A DNA stretch of 64,000 bases from the IMG/VR virus record IMGVR_UViG_3300033489_000003, positions 40,644-104,643 of that record. One strand, given 5' to 3'. The position numbers were made by a program, and so were the translations under genes. Positions within the stretch are counted from its first letter, which is position 1. Every line of letters begins with the position of its first letter. The DNA is from a virus. This document shows positions 18,489-41,475 of the stretch, one piece after another. The notes under the pieces are model-generated. The model made no database searches and was not told where the DNA came from. It saw only the letters and a list, made by a program, of their open reading frames with translations.

Positions 18489-18769
18489 CGTGCGCCTCCG
18501 TCTCGGAGTTCGAAGACGCACCCGCAGCCGTCGTAGACGCGATAGATGGCAGACGATGCGCCGCGCTCTCGGCAGCGAGAGACGCAGCCGGCCATGGCGC
18601 CGTCTTGGTAACTAGGGCCGGGGTTGCAGCCGGCGAGGAGTAGCGAGGCGCCGCTAGCCAACACGAATTGGCTTGTTTTGCGCCATTTCACCAGTGCAAA
18701 GGCGCGTAGTATCTCACTTATTCTTTGGCACGCAGACTCCAAGGGTGTGCTTTCCCGCGCAAGCTTCAT
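18485..18769 (-). CDS. Hypothetical lipoprotein-like protein
   Basis: LLLAGC followed by a Cys-rich tail; ATGA overlap with the integrase. Confidence 0.45.
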   Translation of the reverse strand: MKLARESTPLESACQRISEILRAFALVKWRKTSQFVLASGASLLLAGCNPGPSYQDGAMAGCVSRCRERGASSAIYRVYDGCGCVFELRDGGAR

Positions 18770-20235
18770 AGCCGCTCATCTCCCGCGATCTCTTCAGCCG
18801 ATCGCCATTCTACCACCGGATCGCGATCTCGCTCGATTCGTACCGCGTGCGCTAGCTCATGAAGCGCCGCGCGCTGCACCTGTCGGTCGGCCCTTTTCCA
18901 AATCGTCTTGATGTTCTCGATCCGCAAGAGCGCCTCACGCCGAAGACCTGCGTTCTCGAGCGGCGACGGCCTGGCTTGCTGAGCCGCCTTCGACTCCAAC
19001 CGCGTCCGCGCCTCGTCGACCTTGGCCAAGGATGCGACCAGCTCAGCCTTGGTCATTCCCGCGTCTGAGAACGCCTCCAGGAATCGCTCGCGCTTCTTCT
19101 GGAGTCTGACCCGCTCCGCCACGAAGTCGACCGTCTTAGCCGGCTTCTGTGGCTCTGGCCCACGGCCCAACTCGTCGCGCAGTTCCACAAGCCGAGCCAG
19201 CGTCATGTCAGCCACCAATGGGTCGAAGTGTTTGACCTGCATGTAGTGGGACCCTGGGCAGGCGCGATGGCACCGGTAATAGTAAGTGTAGTTCTTGGCG
19301 CCAGTGTAGAAGCCGCCGCCGTAGGATGCGCCAAGCCTTGCTCCGCATCTTCCGCACCGCCCGATCTCACGAAGCAGCCAGTCCTTGGTGCGGGACCCCG
19401 CCTGCGGCGCCGCACCGACGAGGCGCCGAGAATCAAGAGCTGCCTGCGCGCGCGCGAAGACATCCGCGTCGATGAGCGGCTCGTGCATGCCCTTGATCCA
19501 AACGCCGCGCGTATCTTTCGTCTCGCCGAGGTAGATGCGGTGACGCAGCGTCTTGTTGACGAGCTTCTTGTCCCAGCCACGATGACGATAGGTCTTCGTG
19601 AGGTGGTCGAGAATCGTCCCGATGGCCGCGCCGCGGATGCACATCCGGTACATCTCGCGAACGATCGCTGCGCCATCGGCGTCGACGATGAGCACGTTGT
19701 GTTCGAGTCGAGAGACGCCCTTGCGCGGCGGACGCACGTAGCCGATCGGCGCGAGTCCGTCGATGTAGTAGCCGCGATCTCGCAGCAGACGTCTCGTTCC
19801 AACCGTCCGCTCTTTGATGCGCTTGTGTTCTTCCCTGGCGACGAGCACTCGAACGCCGAGCATCGTGTCACCGTCTCGGGTCGACGGGTCGCACCTGTCG
19901 CCGACGGCGTAGAACGAGACGCCAGCCTCAAGCAATCTTCTGATGCTGCCGTATGTGAACTCTGGATCGCGCGACCACCGGTCGAGCTTGTCGCACACGA
20001 CGAGGTCGCCCTTGCGCGCCTCTTTGAGCAGAAGCTGGATCTGCTCTCGCTTTTCGATCCGCTCGTAGACTGCGCTCTCGGCTTCAACATAGAACCGCGT
20101 TACCTTTAGGCCGCGTGCTTTCGCGTACGCCGAGATGGCGTCTTGCTGATCTTGGAGTGACGTTCCCCTTGCTTGATCTTCGCTGGAAACTCTCGCGTAG
20201 CCGAATACTCGGCCGACTGTTCCGGCTCCGGACAT
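18766..20235 (-). CDS. Large serine recombinase (integrase)
   Basis: GYARVSS catalytic Ser, DRWSR, recombinase domain, Zn ribbon CGRCG..YYYRC..C, coiled coil. Confidence 0.93.
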   Translation of the reverse strand: MSGAGTVGRVFGYARVSSEDQARGTSLQDQQDAISAYAKARGLKVTRFYVEAESAVYERIEKREQIQLLLKEARKGDLVVCDKLDRWSRDPEFTYGSIRRLLEAGVSFYAVGDRCDPSTRDGDTMLGVRVLVAREEHKRIKERTVGTRRLLRDRGYYIDGLAPIGYVRPPRKGVSRLEHNVLIVDADGAAIVREMYRMCIRGAAIGTILDHLTKTYRHRGWDKKLVNKTLRHRIYLGETKDTRGVWIKGMHEPLIDADVFARAQAALDSRRLVGAAPQAGSRTKDWLLREIGRCGRCGARLGASYGGGFYTGAKNYTYYYRCHRACPGSHYMQVKHFDPLVADMTLARLVELRDELGRGPEPQKPAKTVDFVAERVRLQKKRERFLEAFSDAGMTKAELVASLAKVDEARTRLESKAAQQARPSPLENAGLRREALLRIENIKTIWKRADRQVQRAALHELAHAVRIERDRDPVVEWRSAEEIAGDERL

Positions 20236-20726: not shown

Positions 20727-20863
20727 TGGGAAGCGGGCAGGACTCGAACCTGCGACCCAAAGATCCGGTAACGATTCTCGGCCGGCCCGTCACCGGGCAA
20801 AGATGTGAGAACCGATATCCCTTGCGGGAATTCTTTTGCTCTACCGACTGAGCTACCGCTTCC
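20727..20863 (-). ncRNA. tRNA-shaped Y-like RNA B (anticodon loop replaced by an insert carrying a Ro-binding-type helix)
   Basis: Acceptor GGAAGCGG/CCGCTTCC; D arm TAGCTCAGTCGGTAGAGC; anticodon stem AAAGA/TCTTT; T arm GCAGG-TTCGAGT-CCTGC; insert contains CTTTGCCCG-GTGA-CGGGCCG. Confidence 0.85.
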
Positions 20864-20876
20864 AAAAAACGAACAG

Positions 20877-20937
20877 CGCGGATAAAGAGGCAGCAGACCG
20901 ATTTCTATTAGCGAGAACAGTCTGCCTGCGACCCGCG
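20877..20937 (-). ncRNA. Minimal Y RNA-like hairpin 2
   Basis: Terminal stem CGCGGGT-C-GCAG / CTTTATCCGCG with a bulged C; inner stem GGCAGACTG/CGGTCTGCT. Confidence 0.75.
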
Positions 20938-20939
20938 TC

Positions 20940-21063
20940 GGGGATCCGTCCCGGAATCGAACCGGGATATCTACCTTAAATGGGTAACGGTCACTCAGCG
21001 GCCCGCGAACGGGCAAAGTACGACTGACCGGTTTTAGCGTCCTGCCTTTAGACGAACGGATCC
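20940..21063 (-). ncRNA. tRNA-shaped Y-like RNA A
   Basis: Acceptor GGATCCGT/ACGGATCC; Glu-like D arm TCGTCTAAAGGCAGGAC; T arm CCCGG-TTCGATT-CCGGG; insert contains CTTTGCCCG-TTCG-CGGGCCG. Confidence 0.85.
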
Positions 21064-21067
21064 ATAA

Positions 21068-21127
21068 GAGCGAATAAGGAGCGCTACCGGAGTCATCCCA
21101 AAGATAACCGGTAACTTCGACTCGCTC
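21068..21127 (-). ncRNA. Minimal Y RNA-like hairpin 1
   Basis: GAGCGAGTCGAAG.../...CCTTATTCGCTC; contains the bacterial Y RNA GNCGAA motif; lies 38 nt after the Ro60 stop. Confidence 0.8.
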
Positions 21128-21134
21128 AACACAC

Positions 21135-21162
21135 ATATTCCCCATTCCTTTCGAATTGTCAA
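21135..21162 (-). promoter_or_regulatory. Candidate promoter for the ncRNA array
   Basis: Perfect TTGACA, 16 nt, weak GAATAT; predicted start falls at the 5' end of hairpin 1. Confidence 0.5.
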
Positions 21163-21165
21163 TAG

Positions 21166-22854
21166 TCAGTTTCGAGCAAAGTCGGCCATGAGGGCCGGCG
21201 CCGCAGAATCGAATCCTACGAAGTCCAACATTCCGGCATCGTTGGGATCGGCGATCGTGAACTCCGTTGCTGTCATGCCAACTACGGCTAGTTTGGCTGG
21301 TCGGCTGAGCTTCTCCCGGTACGCGCGGAGCGCCTGGAATGGATGAATCGTCCCTGCCCAAGTTTCGTTGTCCGTGTAGACCTGGAACATGTCGACCTCG
21401 ATATCGGAGCCGGCTGCGTAGAGCATGGGCAATGCGCAATCGGTTCCGCCCATGGGCAGCTTTGCTATCGCGCGGATGACGTCGTCGAGGCGCTGCTTGG
21501 GGCTGATATCGATCGGCGTGAAACCCGGCGCTCCGCCGCCATGCATGCCACCGTACCCGCGTCCGTTCATCGGTGCCGTAAACCCGAATATGTGCCAGTT
21601 TTTCTCTGTGCGAGCAGTCACCATTGCCATCGCTGCGCTGGCCACGCGCGGCGTGAGACCAGGGCAGCCAGCGATTGCGCCGCTTTCCATAGACCCTGAG
21701 ACATCAAGGCCGATCAGGATGTTCTTGCCCGTCGGCTCCACCGCCTGAAACGCCAGGTAGAACGCTTCGTCGAGCGCGTCGACAATCTCCCGCGCTGGAG
21801 CCCAGGTGAGCTTGCCCTTATCCCCGTGGCCTTGCTGATAGACGCGCAGCGCCGACAGGAGCGCGATCGGGTGAACGCGCGCCTTCTTGATCCTGTCGGC
21901 GTCGGCGATCATGCCGGCCGCCAGCTTGACGTGCTCGCCCATCGGCTTGAAGAGCCCGACTGCCGTCATCTTCGCGAGGTTGCGGACCAGCGCCGTCTGC
22001 GGCATCTCTTCGAGCAGCGCTTCCCACACGTCCACCGAGTTCTTGTGCTCTGTCGGGATCATCTCGTGGGTGAATCGATGTTGCCGGATGAGCTTCGCGG
22101 TCGTCTTCGGATCCGGCGACGCCTTGAGCTCATCGTACGCGGCGAGAAGTGCTGGCAACGCTTCCAGCCTGCTCGGGTACTGGACTGCGCGCTCTTCCTT
22201 TCCGGCCATGCGCTTCATGCCGCGCTCGCCCATCGGGGCGCCTACGCACCAACGGAACGCGGCGTCATGCTGCGGCGTGGGCGCCTTCGGATGCGATAGA
22301 CGCAGCACGTCACGATGGGCCCAACCGTAGCGCTGTTGATACTTGAGCAGCTGCTGAGCGAGCCTGTCGGGCTCCTTCGCGGTGTACCACCGAGCAACCG
22401 CCGAGCGCAGACCTCGCCCCCACTTGCGGAAGTTCTCCACGTCACGAACGAAGTGGAACAGGTGGGTGCCGATGCGGCAGACTTTCGGGAGAGCAGCAAG
22501 CGCAATAGCCCTTGTTTCCGGCCTGCTATCAGCGGCCGCCATCGCGAGCGCGAAGATCGCCGGGTCGTTCTTGGGCGCGCGACCGGCGTCGGAAATCTCG
22601 ACGATCCGAGCGACCGTGCGCGCCCCGTCTTCTGCGAGGCAGTCGAGGACGACTTGCGCGTTGTCGCGCGTGAGCGCCCGCTCAGAGGCGTAGTAGGTCC
22701 CGCCGTCAGCGCCCAAGATGAGCCAGCGATCAAGCCGCGCCCACTTGTCGAGCGTGAACGCGAAGCCCCCAGCGGAGTTCTTCTTCTGGTCGCTCCGCGC
22801 AGACTCCGACTGCGGCGTCTTCAGCGTGGAAAAGTGTTGCCCATAGTTCGACAT
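21166..22854 (-). CDS. rsr: Ro60/Rsr ortholog (TROVE + vWA RNA-binding protein)
   Basis: AGGAG RBS; NSAGGF, LILG..GGTYY, GWAHRDVLRLSHPK, ALVRNLAKMT, VHP, MIDAS DVSGSM, GGTDC, TDNETW, IADP.D.GMLD.VGFD. Confidence 0.95.
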   Translation of the reverse strand: MSNYGQHFSTLKTPQSESARSDQKKNSAGGFAFTLDKWARLDRWLILGADGGTYYASERALTRDNAQVVLDCLAEDGARTVARIVEISDAGRAPKNDPAIFALAMAAADSRPETRAIALAALPKVCRIGTHLFHFVRDVENFRKWGRGLRSAVARWYTAKEPDRLAQQLLKYQQRYGWAHRDVLRLSHPKAPTPQHDAAFRWCVGAPMGERGMKRMAGKEERAVQYPSRLEALPALLAAYDELKASPDPKTTAKLIRQHRFTHEMIPTEHKNSVDVWEALLEEMPQTALVRNLAKMTAVGLFKPMGEHVKLAAGMIADADRIKKARVHPIALLSALRVYQQGHGDKGKLTWAPAREIVDALDEAFYLAFQAVEPTGKNILIGLDVSGSMESGAIAGCPGLTPRVASAAMAMVTARTEKNWHIFGFTAPMNGRGYGGMHGGGAPGFTPIDISPKQRLDDVIRAIAKLPMGGTDCALPMLYAAGSDIEVDMFQVYTDNETWAGTIHPFQALRAYREKLSRPAKLAVVGMTATEFTIADPNDAGMLDFVGFDSAAPALMADFARN

Positions 22855-39952: not shown

Positions 39953-41475
39953 GCGACGAAAAGTACGGGGCGATGCGCGGCTTTCAGGAGTCGCTCTATT
40001 CGTTGGCTGTCGACATTGTCGACGGCAGACGTACTGAGCGAACCTTCGTTTTGAGCGCTACGCCTGGCGGCGGGAAGACGCGGGCCTATTCGATCTTTGC
40101 CCACGAACTGCTCGAGGCCGGCATTGTTCAGAAAGTTCTCATCGTTGTGCCGCGCGACTCGCTTCGCTCGCAAGTGCGAGAGGGTTTTACGGATGGGCAA
40201 TACCTTTTCCGCGCGATCATAGACGACCCGAAGCAAATCAAGTCTGGCCAGGAGAGCATCCTTGCCCGTTCTGGATGGGTCACTACGTACCAAGCAATCG
40301 CCGCAGCGCCGAAGCGGTGGCAACGTCTTGTTGCGGACTTCAGGCTTCTTCTTGTTCTGGATGAAGGACATCACCTGTCCGAGCGCCCGACCGATGATCC
40401 CGAGATCGCGGAGGGCGCCGCTTGGTGGCAAAGCCTTAAACCGATCGCCGATGTGGCTGAAAAGATTTTAGTCGGCAGCGGCACGCTTTGGCGTGAGCGT
40501 GGCCAAAAGATTCCGTTGGTCCCGTACCGAGAAGACGGTTCTCTCGTTGCCGACGTGACCTACACGCGACGAGAGGCGCTTGCTGAAAAGGCCATTCTGC
40601 CTATCAACTTCAAACGCATCGACGGCCGCGCGATCTACGCCTCCAAGGGCAACGTCAAAAACGTCACGCTGTCGAGCGCCAAGAAGTCGGAAAACGCGAA
40701 GGCTCTCAAGACGCTTCTTCTGTCGCCCAACTATCGCGACGACGTTCTGGGCAGGCTTTCCGAGTGGGCGACGTATCGCCGGACGACCTATCCGTCCCGC
40801 GCGATCGTTGTCACGCATAGTCAATCGGCGGCGCGGTCAATCGCCGACATTGTCGGCAAACAGCTAGGCGTCAAGGTAGCTCTTGCCATAAGCGATGATG
40901 CGGCCAGTAAACGCCATCTGAAGGCGTTTCGTCGAGACCGGGTTGGCGATGTTCTCGTTACGGTTGGCATGGCCCACGAAGGGCTGGACGTGCCGGATTG
41001 CACGCATCTCATCTGCTTGACCGATGTCCGTTCTCCTGGATGGCTAGAGCAGATGTTCGGACGCGTGACGCGCTTCGATCCTTCCTGCGGTCTTACGTGG
41101 GAGCAGCAATGCGCGTACATCTATGTGCCAGATGATCCGCCGATGCGTGCGGTCATAGATGGCCTATTGGCCGAACAGCATCTTGCTTGGGAGGAGATGG
41201 CGCGCGGCAAGCCGAAAGGCATTCGCGTTCACCCGTTGGCCACCTTCCGACCGCTTGAAGGGTCGGCTGGAGAGACGCGCTACTCGTCCGTTGACGGCAA
41301 TTTCACCGATGAGCAGTCGCGGCTGATCATGCGCACGCTGAAGACGTGGCCAGAACTGGAAGTGCTCCCGTGGCACAAGGTGCTTGAGATTGGCACCCAC
41401 ACGGACTGGAACACGTTCAACGGACAAGGCCACGGCGGGGTCGGTTCGGCGGAGGCGACTGGCGATGCGAGCTGA
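39949..41475 (+). CDS. Superfamily 2 (DExH) helicase
   Basis: TPGGGKT, DEGHH, SGT, EGLDVP, QMFGRVTR. Confidence 0.9.
   Translation: MSDEKYGAMRGFQESLYSLAVDIVDGRRTERTFVLSATPGGGKTRAYSIFAHELLEAGIVQKVLIVVPRDSLRSQVREGFTDGQYLFRAIIDDPKQIKSGQESILARSGWVTTYQAIAAAPKRWQRLVADFRLLLVLDEGHHLSERPTDDPEIAEGAAWWQSLKPIADVAEKILVGSGTLWRERGQKIPLVPYREDGSLVADVTYTRREALAEKAILPINFKRIDGRAIYASKGNVKNVTLSSAKKSENAKALKTLLLSPNYRDDVLGRLSEWATYRRTTYPSRAIVVTHSQSAARSIADIVGKQLGVKVALAISDDAASKRHLKAFRRDRVGDVLVTVGMAHEGLDVPDCTHLICLTDVRSPGWLEQMFGRVTRFDPSCGLTWEQQCAYIYVPDDPPMRAVIDGLLAEQHLAWEEMARGKPKGIRVHPLATFRPLEGSAGETRYSSVDGNFTDEQSRLIMRTLKTWPELEVLPWHKVLEIGTHTDWNTFNGQGHGGVGSAEATGDAS

Follow-up and report, generated by a model that had tools for sequence, protein, structure and literature searches.

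A 64,000-nt stretch of the virus record IMGVR_UViG_3300033489_000003 (positions 40,644 to 104,643 of the record; hereafter the window) carries a gene for Ro60 (Rsr), followed on the same strand by two RNA genes that have the topology of tRNA, with an open acceptor stem, and a Ro60-binding-type hairpin in addition to the tRNA body. The defining feature of Y RNAs is a stem that binds Ro60 and is made up of their own 5' and 3' ends, and the bacterial YrlAs among them are permuted tRNA mimics with a closed acceptor stem. The two RNAs, referred to as RNA #1 and RNA #2, are circular permutants in tRNA topology that are colinear with YrlA-class Y RNAs, and they are probably partners of Ro60, that is, YrlA-class Y RNAs whose topology differs from the canonical one. 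From here on, RNAs with a free acceptor end are called open forms, and those with the canonical YrlA topology closed forms.

Both RNAs are matched end to end by R1, a covariance model built from 57 open forms (cut-off for membership 63 bits), at 77.6 and 76.2 bits, respectively (E ~1e-20); the R1 scores of ordinary tRNAs are about 35-62 bits. RNA #1 belongs to type A, the commoner of two types, and runs from the 5' acceptor strand through a Glu-like D arm, an A-rich linker, the Ro hairpin, UUACC, a short anticodon-like hairpin, a variable loop and the T arm to the 3' acceptor strand. It folds with an acceptor stem of 7-8 bp, a D arm and a T arm (z = -3.15), and its R1 alignment shows the 7-bp acceptor stem, both of these arms and the elbow nucleotides of a tRNA. 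Type A is without the anticodon-type stem of type B and has a variable loop of 5-7 nt; the loop of the anticodon-like hairpin of RNA #1 has A at position 33 and not the decoding-type U33. RNA #1 is reported by neither Rfam nor ARAGORN, and the Rfam tRNA model (RF00005) gives no match in the region beyond RNA #2 even at E 10. RNA #2, of type B, is recognised by that model at 53.4 bits, with a gathering score of 29, over model positions 1-71 and with a 65-nt insertion in the anticodon loop. Its anticodon-type stem AAAGA/UCUUU (20836-20832 with 20763-20759) is present, and the loop is swapped for a GNRA-capped small hairpin and the Ro hairpin. The small hairpin covaries in the related virus L003 (58% Ro60 identity), where it reads CGC-GAAA-GCG, and in the loci L001, L101 and L109; in the type-B consensus (five RNAs) compensatory changes are found both in this hairpin and in the anticodon-type stem. 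A decoding-type anticodon arm (5-bp stem, 7-nt loop, U33 and R37) is present in neither RNA, and neither of them encodes its CCA end, which is encoded in 10 of 72 open-form members.

The element common to the two RNAs consists of UUUGCCCG, a tetraloop (UUCG or GUGA), CGGGC-C-G and, later, CGUUACC. Its core reads UUUGCCCG-UUCG-CGGGC[C]G in RNA #1 (21017-20998, bulged C at 21000) and UUUGCCCG-GUGA-CGGGC[C]G in RNA #2 (20801-20782, bulged C at 20784). This is the strand-swapped image of the helix of a plain Y hairpin (5' CGGGU-C-G / 3' UUUAUCCG): what is the 3' strand in ordinary Y RNAs stands in first place here, a tetraloop closes what would be the termini, and the acceptor stem is open. The bulged C is conserved in Y RNAs and is the primary Ro60 determinant (PMC4030889). 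All four RNAs downstream of Ro60, namely RNA #1, RNA #2 and the plain hairpins A and B, have a Ro60-binding-type helix with a bulged C. Of the two published YrlA motifs, GNCGAA and YUAY (Chen 2014, PMC4201824), the latter corresponds to the UUAC found after the Ro stem in both window RNAs.

An earlier, sequence-only reading had described the two RNAs as having normal tRNA topology with an open acceptor, and as sharing a strand-swapped, tetraloop-closed Ro element that mirrors the plain hairpin helix, and this description holds. The ends it gave (20940-21063 and 20727-20863) are here refined to 21062-20943 for RNA #1 and 20862-20730 for RNA #2, each with a G at position -1. Its statement that the anticodon loop is replaced by an insert is right for RNA #2 only; RNA #1 has kept a hairpin with a 4-bp stem and a 7-nt loop, and its Ro hairpin is placed between this and the D arm. 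It was also right about one neighbouring plain Y hairpin, hairpin B, to which a second one (21127-21068), between the Ro60 stop codon and RNA #1, has to be added. Of the YrlA and tRNA models that it proposed as a check, the tRNA model finds RNA #2 in native form and leaves RNA #1 unmatched, and the Rfam YrlA model (RF02553, gathering score 69) matches neither native RNA: its best result on the virus genome is a partial alignment from the GNCG of RNA #2 (13.3 bits, E 0.48). Its central proposal, that the RNAs are circular permutants of YrlA-class Y RNAs with tRNA topology, is borne out by reciprocal permutation tests, which show colinearity.

In these tests, sequence profiles (hidden Markov models, HMMs) were used, and closed units were cut at the acceptor loop and their Ro strands joined. 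Against the open-form HMM (124 positions), 32 closed YrlAs had medians of 60.5 positions and 19.5 bits in native order, and of 117.5 positions and 51.6 bits when permuted. Conversely, 66 open forms rose from 56 positions and 20.5 bits to 122 positions and 45.4 bits on the closed-form HMM (127 positions). Permutation raised RNA #2 from 14.8 to 45.0 bits on the closed-form HMM, and RNA #1 from 5.8 to 11.7 bits, while the span of the latter widened from 52 to 124 positions. In other Ro60 loci, among them that of mycobacteriophage Sparky, RF02553 matches the closed forms over the full length at 36-50 bits (E 4e-10 to 5e-7).

Like YrlA (RF02553; PMC4201824; 10.1101/312249), the window RNAs are adjacent to Ro60, on the same strand and in several copies per locus. 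Also shared are a bulged helix that contains GNCG and has YUAY after it, a hairpin preceding the T arm, D and T arms of tRNA type, the near-invariant D stem GCUC/GAGC, and the R15:Y48 covariation. Closed forms also carry a hairpin with an anticodon-like loop after GGUUAUC, and some have a GNRA hairpin after the D arm. What differs is the order. YrlA runs from the Ro 5' strand through the T arm, the closed acceptor hairpin and the D arm to the Ro 3' strand, so that its ends lie in the Ro stem, whereas the window RNAs run circularly permuted from the 5' acceptor strand through the D arm, the Ro hairpin and the T arm to the 3' acceptor strand, with an open acceptor (7 bp plus discriminator) and a Ro helix closed by a loop of 3-7 nt. 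In open forms both strands of the Ro helix can be recognised; for the RNAs of Salmonella and M. smegmatis, this is reported of the 5' strand alone (PMC4201824).

The open-form family and its linkage to Ro60

We fetched 36 viral and 80 cellular Ro60 loci, the nearest at 58-65% Ro60 identity; the cellular loci were collected with an alignment as query, a single-protein query having returned none. When the loci were scanned for a T arm combined with a D arm and a 7-bp acceptor, 60 of 117 had open tRNA-shaped elements 100-165 nt long, in every case on the same strand as Ro60; closed YrlA-type elements are present in 39 loci. With R1, the family comprises 72 open forms from 46 Ro60 loci of viral contigs, Myxococcota, Chloroflexota, Armatimonadota and Gemmatimonadota, again all on the Ro60 strand. 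The open architecture is widespread and not peculiar to this phage. Three isolated actinophages with Ro60 (Targaryen, Forza and Sparky) have no open form, and a blastn search with the insert of RNA #2 gave no match among isolated phages.

Collecting the flanks of related Ro60 genes and testing for covariation, as the sequence-only reading had suggested, gave a strong signal. In the model-fitted alignment, 93.3% of the cells are paired, compared with 75.1% after shuffling and 37-47% when partners are slid. Double changes occur in 27 of 32 pairs; the outer Ro stem has compensatory changes in all of its nine pairs, and the inner Ro helix is near-invariant. In the raw MAFFT alignment, register shifts limited what RNAalifold could recover to the acceptor, the D and T arms and 3 bp in the Ro helix; realignment to the covariance model cured these shifts. 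The tRNA core is retained, with U8 and A21 in 71 of the 72 members each, A14 and G18 in all 72, and G19 in 67. The Levitt pair 15:48, whose covariation has been used for closed YrlA (Chen 2014, PMC4201824), covaries here as well (G15:C48 in 40/72, A15:U48 in 28/72). At the Ro site, the bulged C and the next G are found in 72/72 members, and GGUUAYC after the stem is near-invariant; the hairpin ends in loops that are often stable tetraloops (UUCG, GUGA) on a 5-bp G+C stem. At the anticodon-like site, an anchored test found a stem of 3-5 bp with a 7-nt loop in 35 of 69 members, 26 of which have the U33/R37 anticodon-loop signature (0.65 expected from shuffling).

Lack of conservation in homologous loci, which the sequence-only reading had named as a reason to give up its interpretation, is not what is seen: besides the family of 72, the array itself is kept in virus L003, where hairpin, type A, hairpin, type B and hairpin alternate. 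Another part of that reading has to be abandoned: the view that the architecture was selected twice does not hold, as RNA #1 and RNA #2 fall into one large family with several types of tRNA body, mostly from cellular Ro60 loci. Nor is the architecture specific to phages. The GNRA hairpin of RNA #2 occurs in closed YrlAs too.

The split between open and closed forms in the sample is largely by lineage. Open lineages are the Polyangiaceae/Sorangium, Kofleriaceae, Haliangiales, Sandaracinaceae, Chloroflexota, Armatimonadota, Gemmatimonadota and the viral contigs nearest the window; closed lineages are the Verrucomicrobiota, Rhodomicrobium and other viral contigs. In Verrucomicrobiota (L061, L064, L065, L069, L073, L079, L085, L091, L092 and L102), three to five closed YrlA units stand in tandem, separated by short U-rich linkers. 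The unit-specific Ro helix extensions of these verrucomicrobial arrays pair long-range, which confirms the closed reading there, and the unit-specific acceptor stems of the open arrays exclude it for the latter. When read across unit boundaries, the verrucomicrobial arrays have the open-form module order (R1 47-58 bits), which suggests duplication followed by a boundary shift as a plausible route between the two topologies.

Open forms are closely linked to Ro60. In five whole genomes (3.9-16 Mb), every R1 match of at least 86 bits falls in the Ro60 locus. Among 121 sampled Myxococcota genomes, Ro60 was found in eight, and RNAs of at least 81 bits occur in exactly those eight, on the same contig and strand as Ro60 and within about 1 kb of it; none of the 113 genomes without Ro60 has such an RNA. 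Ro60 was called in these genomes by protein search, the Pfam TROVE domain at E 1e-20 being too strict (3/121).

At some cellular loci Ro60 is embedded in dense arrays of ordinary tRNA genes (L037:1250-6470, and also L039, L050, L052, L057, L096, L098, L108 and L109, from Polyangiaceae, Kofleriaceae and Haliangiales). Within 6.6 kb, up to about 30 tRNA genes share the Ro60 strand, and open-form Y RNAs stand among them at spacings of 6-10 nt. The open form of Sorangium cellulosum So0157-2 lies at L039:4513-4632, and Chondromyces apiculatus (L052) has three copies.

The Ro60 locus of the virus

The virus record is 104,643 bp long and is rated complete, and all features of the locus are on its minus strand (Table 1). 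The Ro60 gene is intact and full-length. Its product matches the Pfam families TROVE (PF05731, 5.9e-48) and vWA_Ro60 (PF25045, 1.9e-59), and over the full length human and Xenopus Ro60 and D. radiodurans Rsr (PDB), with E values of 1e-108 to 1e-117. The nearest cellular Ro60 proteins are those of Polyangiaceae and Sorangium (61-65% identity); closer relatives are P0002 (81% identity) and P0003-P0005 (about 70%). The RNAs follow the Ro60 stop codon in the order hairpin A, RNA #1, hairpin B and RNA #2, and begin 39-304 nt past it.

Table 1. Features of the Ro60 locus in window coordinates.
Feature	Position	Strand	Description
Ro60 (Rsr) gene	21166-22854	minus	562 aa; TROVE ring and vWA domain with DVSGS MIDAS motif
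Plain Y hairpin A (YrlB-like)	21068-21127	minus	ends in Ro helix; core z -3.16
tRNA-shaped putative Y RNA #1 (type A)	20943-21062	minus	R1 77.6 bits; fold; ortholog L003:4206-4326
Predicted Ro-binding hairpin of RNA #1	20988-21030	minus	outer stem CGGUCA/UGACCG; between D arm and anticodon-like hairpin
Anticodon-like hairpin of RNA #1	20972-20986	minus	UACC [CAUUUAA] GGUA; 4-bp stem, 7-nt loop
Plain Y hairpin B	20877-20937	minus	5' CGCGGGU[C]GCAG / 3' CUUUAUCCGCG; z -3.27
tRNA-shaped putative Y RNA #2 (type B)	20730-20862	minus	full cloverleaf frame; Rfam tRNA 53.4 bits; R1 76.2 bits
GNRA-capped small hairpin of RNA #2	20819-20828	minus	CCC-GCAA-GGG
Predicted Ro-binding hairpin of RNA #2	20772-20814	minus	outer stem CGGUUCUC/GAGAAUCG; then CGUUACC

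Hairpins A and B are built like classic Y RNAs, with the ends in a helix that contains the bulged C and in which the 5' strand GU-C-GA or GGGU-C-G pairs with UUAU or UUUAUCC. In hairpin A, the bulged C lies in a GUCGAAG motif and UUAUC stands atop the upper stem; a counterpart is found in the same position in L003. Hairpin B is followed directly by a U-run (20869-20864). The Rfam model of nematode sbRNAs (RF01656) gives no match to either hairpin of the window. Next to Ro60 genes of other, bacterial loci, plain Y-like hairpins pass the gathering score of that model at L100:1055-1126, L100:1890-1959 and L093:2366-2435.

About 500 nt downstream of RNA #2 lies a gene for a large serine recombinase (18766-20235, minus strand; phage integrase, phrog_95, 1.7e-77), the only one of the flanking open reading frames with a family match in PHROGs and Pfam, the short ones between RNA #2 and the integrase included. 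ARAGORN calls no tRNA across the 64-kb window, and R1, which also detects tRNAs, matches only RNA #1 and RNA #2 in the whole 104,643-bp record. These two are the sole tRNA-shaped genes of the virus, which has no ordinary tRNA gene.

Proposed working and alternative explanations

From the sequences we infer the following course for the binding of Ro60, the processing of the RNAs and the recruitment of partners. The Ro60 gene and the four RNAs would be transcribed together. Host RNase P, together with 3' trimming and CCA addition, would release the tRNA-shaped units like tRNAs, as their 7-bp acceptor and T arm and the 6-10-nt spacing to true tRNAs in cellular arrays suggest, and the same processing would free the plain Y hairpins lying between them. 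Ro60 would bind the conserved UUGCCCG / CGGGC-C-G helix, closed and bulged, and the L-shaped tRNA body could act as an effector module that brings a tRNA-recognising or RNA-degrading partner to Ro60. In known systems the Y RNA tethers Ro60 to PNPase, and YrlA is modified by TruB and DusA; candidate partners are PNPase, in complexes of the RYPER type, and tRNA-handling enzymes. The gain for the phage may lie in RNA surveillance or in counter-defence.

The G at position -1 bears on what the free acceptor end might do. G-1:C73 is present in both window RNAs (21063/20942 in RNA #1 and 20863/20729 in RNA #2) and in 19 of the 72 family members, as against 16 of 262 ordinary tRNAs of the same loci (Fisher 6e-6, for members that are not phylogenetically independent); it is found in 10/14 viral and 9/58 cellular members. 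A -1/73 pairing of some kind is common in ordinary tRNAs of these loci (58%) and is for this reason no general mark of an 8-bp acceptor stem; only G-1:C73 is enriched. This pair is the hallmark of tRNA-His and the main identity mark for HisRS. It is conceivable, though we think it rather improbable, that the Ro60-tethered RNAs are CCA-tailed and aminoacylated, the viral ones perhaps with histidine in view of the G-1:C73 of both window RNAs and of most viral members, and that such charged non-decoding tRNAs would engage or decoy EF-Tu, ribosomes or tRNA-sensing defence and stress systems.

Several points speak against regarding these RNAs as Y RNA partners of Ro60, or soften the case for it. 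The window motifs are GCCGCU and GCCGGC, where the published motif is GNCGAA, so that GNCG alone is retained; in the family the AA that follows is partly kept, the first position after the G being A in 47%. The alignment (A4) was fitted to the model, and its pair counts are somewhat inflated by this. The 80 cellular loci are the best matches to the phage Ro60, and the family proportions are hence no census. Three tRNA-shaped RNAs (63-69 bits), which have a different insert without the Ro motif, occur in genomes that lack Ro60 or more than 6 kb away from it, and because of them an extra arm at this site is by itself no proof of Ro60 binding. Finally, Ro60 is reported to open the Y RNA stem on binding (summarised in PMC12135203), and a G+C-rich, tetraloop-closed hairpin might resist this.

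The three RNAs without the Ro motif are found at G001:C1:4251865-4251997 (L120:5866-5998, minus strand), L121:101-229 and L122:101-206. Their extra arm lies between the D arm and the anticodon-like hairpin, and GUUCUC-hairpin-CAGUGAG is common to two of the three. These RNAs may form a sister family whose protein partner is a different one.

One alternative is that, once released, the RNA undergoes a further cut within the terminal loop of its Ro hairpin and becomes a two-piece RNA, or a YrlA of canonical topology with its ends in the Ro stem. M. smegmatis YrlA, a substrate of RNase P that acquires CCA in vivo, exists mainly as two base-paired halves bound to Rsr (PMC4201824), and free ends would ease the reported separation of the Y RNA stem strands by Ro60 (PMC12135203). 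The loops in question, however, are short (3-7 nt), and many of them are stable tetraloops capping a G+C stem of 5 bp. They are poor nuclease targets and have no conserved processing signal, so that we consider such a cut unlikely. Less likely again is that the tRNA-shaped units are mainly processing punctuation, that is, RNase P and RNase Z handles that free the plain Y hairpins, and not stable Ro60 partners. The alternation of hairpins and tRNA-shaped units here and in L003, as well as cellular open forms lying 6-10 nt from true tRNAs in arrays, would fit this role, but for punctuation alone no invariant Ro-type helix would be needed within the tRNA body, and many loci have open forms without plain hairpins between them.

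It is very improbable that these are ordinary tRNA genes of phage or host from which splicing removes an intron or insert, so that decoding tRNAs result. Rfam does read the insert of RNA #2 as an insertion in the anticodon loop of a tRNA, and the frequency of 7-nt loops with U33/R37 in the family is far above expectation. On the other hand, the insert is the most conserved part of the RNAs, as seen in its bulged C and the next G, and is far below the size of a group I intron, the kind to which bacterial tRNA introns belong. In type A, moreover, the insert stands between the D arm and a stem of 3-5 bp, and its removal leaves no normal anticodon arm; RNA #2 has no anticodon loop left, and the RNAs are found only beside Ro60. 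Least probable of all, to the point of being negligible, are chance similarity and decayed, functionless tRNA pseudogenes: the silence of ARAGORN in the window would be explained, yet covariance-model E values of about 1e-20, covariation in every helix and in a tertiary pair, and strict co-occurrence with Ro60 contradict it already. Compared with these alternatives, Y RNAs of the YrlA class that are encoded open and partner Ro60 as single chains remain the probable reading.

Known relatives and significance

The closest known parallel to an open acceptor end is the RNase P-opened YrlA of M. smegmatis, likewise a tRNA mimic with an opened 7-bp acceptor, to which the CCA end is added and which is associated with Ro60, an association that is predicted for the window RNAs. 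This RNA partly anticipates an open acceptor end for Y RNAs bound to Ro60 (PMC4201824). The M. smegmatis RNA is made closed and ends up as two base-paired pieces, whereas the window RNAs are encoded open and would be one chain. D. radiodurans Yrn1, metazoan Y RNAs and nematode sbRNAs have a bulged-C helix with both strands conserved, as the window RNAs do, but have their ends in the Ro helix and are without a complete tRNA body with an open acceptor. Among phages, phiLo of Thermus encodes phiRo60, which binds host PNPase in vitro together with its Y-like RNAs, and for which the authors propose hijacking of PNPase (PMC12135203). The adjacent phiLo RNAs Yrl1 and Yrl2 have a CGAA-type motif and are plain stem-bulge-stem RNAs like hairpins A and B; a tRNA-shaped partner is not described (PMC12135203). 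tmRNA and the viral tRNA-like structures are tRNA mimics with a free acceptor end as well, without a link to Ro60. The permuted tRNA genes of algae and archaea (10.1101/312249) show natural permutation and are rejoined into normal tRNAs; the window RNAs, by contrast, keep the canonical tRNA order and have an added arm that is predicted to bind protein.

The open topology is not described in PMC4201824 or 10.1101/312249, in which only closed YrlAs, the two-piece M. smegmatis RNA and Yrn1 are found, nor does a 2026 preprint about bacterial tRNA mimics deal with it. The open-ended form of Y RNA is apparently undescribed so far; prior mention is possible in reviews, of which our coverage is incomplete. 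The 2014 search for YrlAs found few delta-proteobacterial candidates and discarded overlaps with annotated tandem tRNA genes (PMC4201824), and because of that filter open forms would have been hidden from it.

The modules known from closed YrlAs occur in genuine tRNA order too, and the acceptor ends are then free. Among the fetched Ro60 loci of Myxococcota, Chloroflexota, Armatimonadota and Gemmatimonadota this is the predominant form, which would explain the candidates missing from the published search. For annotation, it means that tRNA finders will overlook these genes or label them as tRNAs with insertions. The role of the tRNA-like module of Y RNAs, and the capacity of a Ro60 ribonucleoprotein to bear a CCA end or an amino acid, become testable in cultivable hosts such as Sorangium and Chondromyces.

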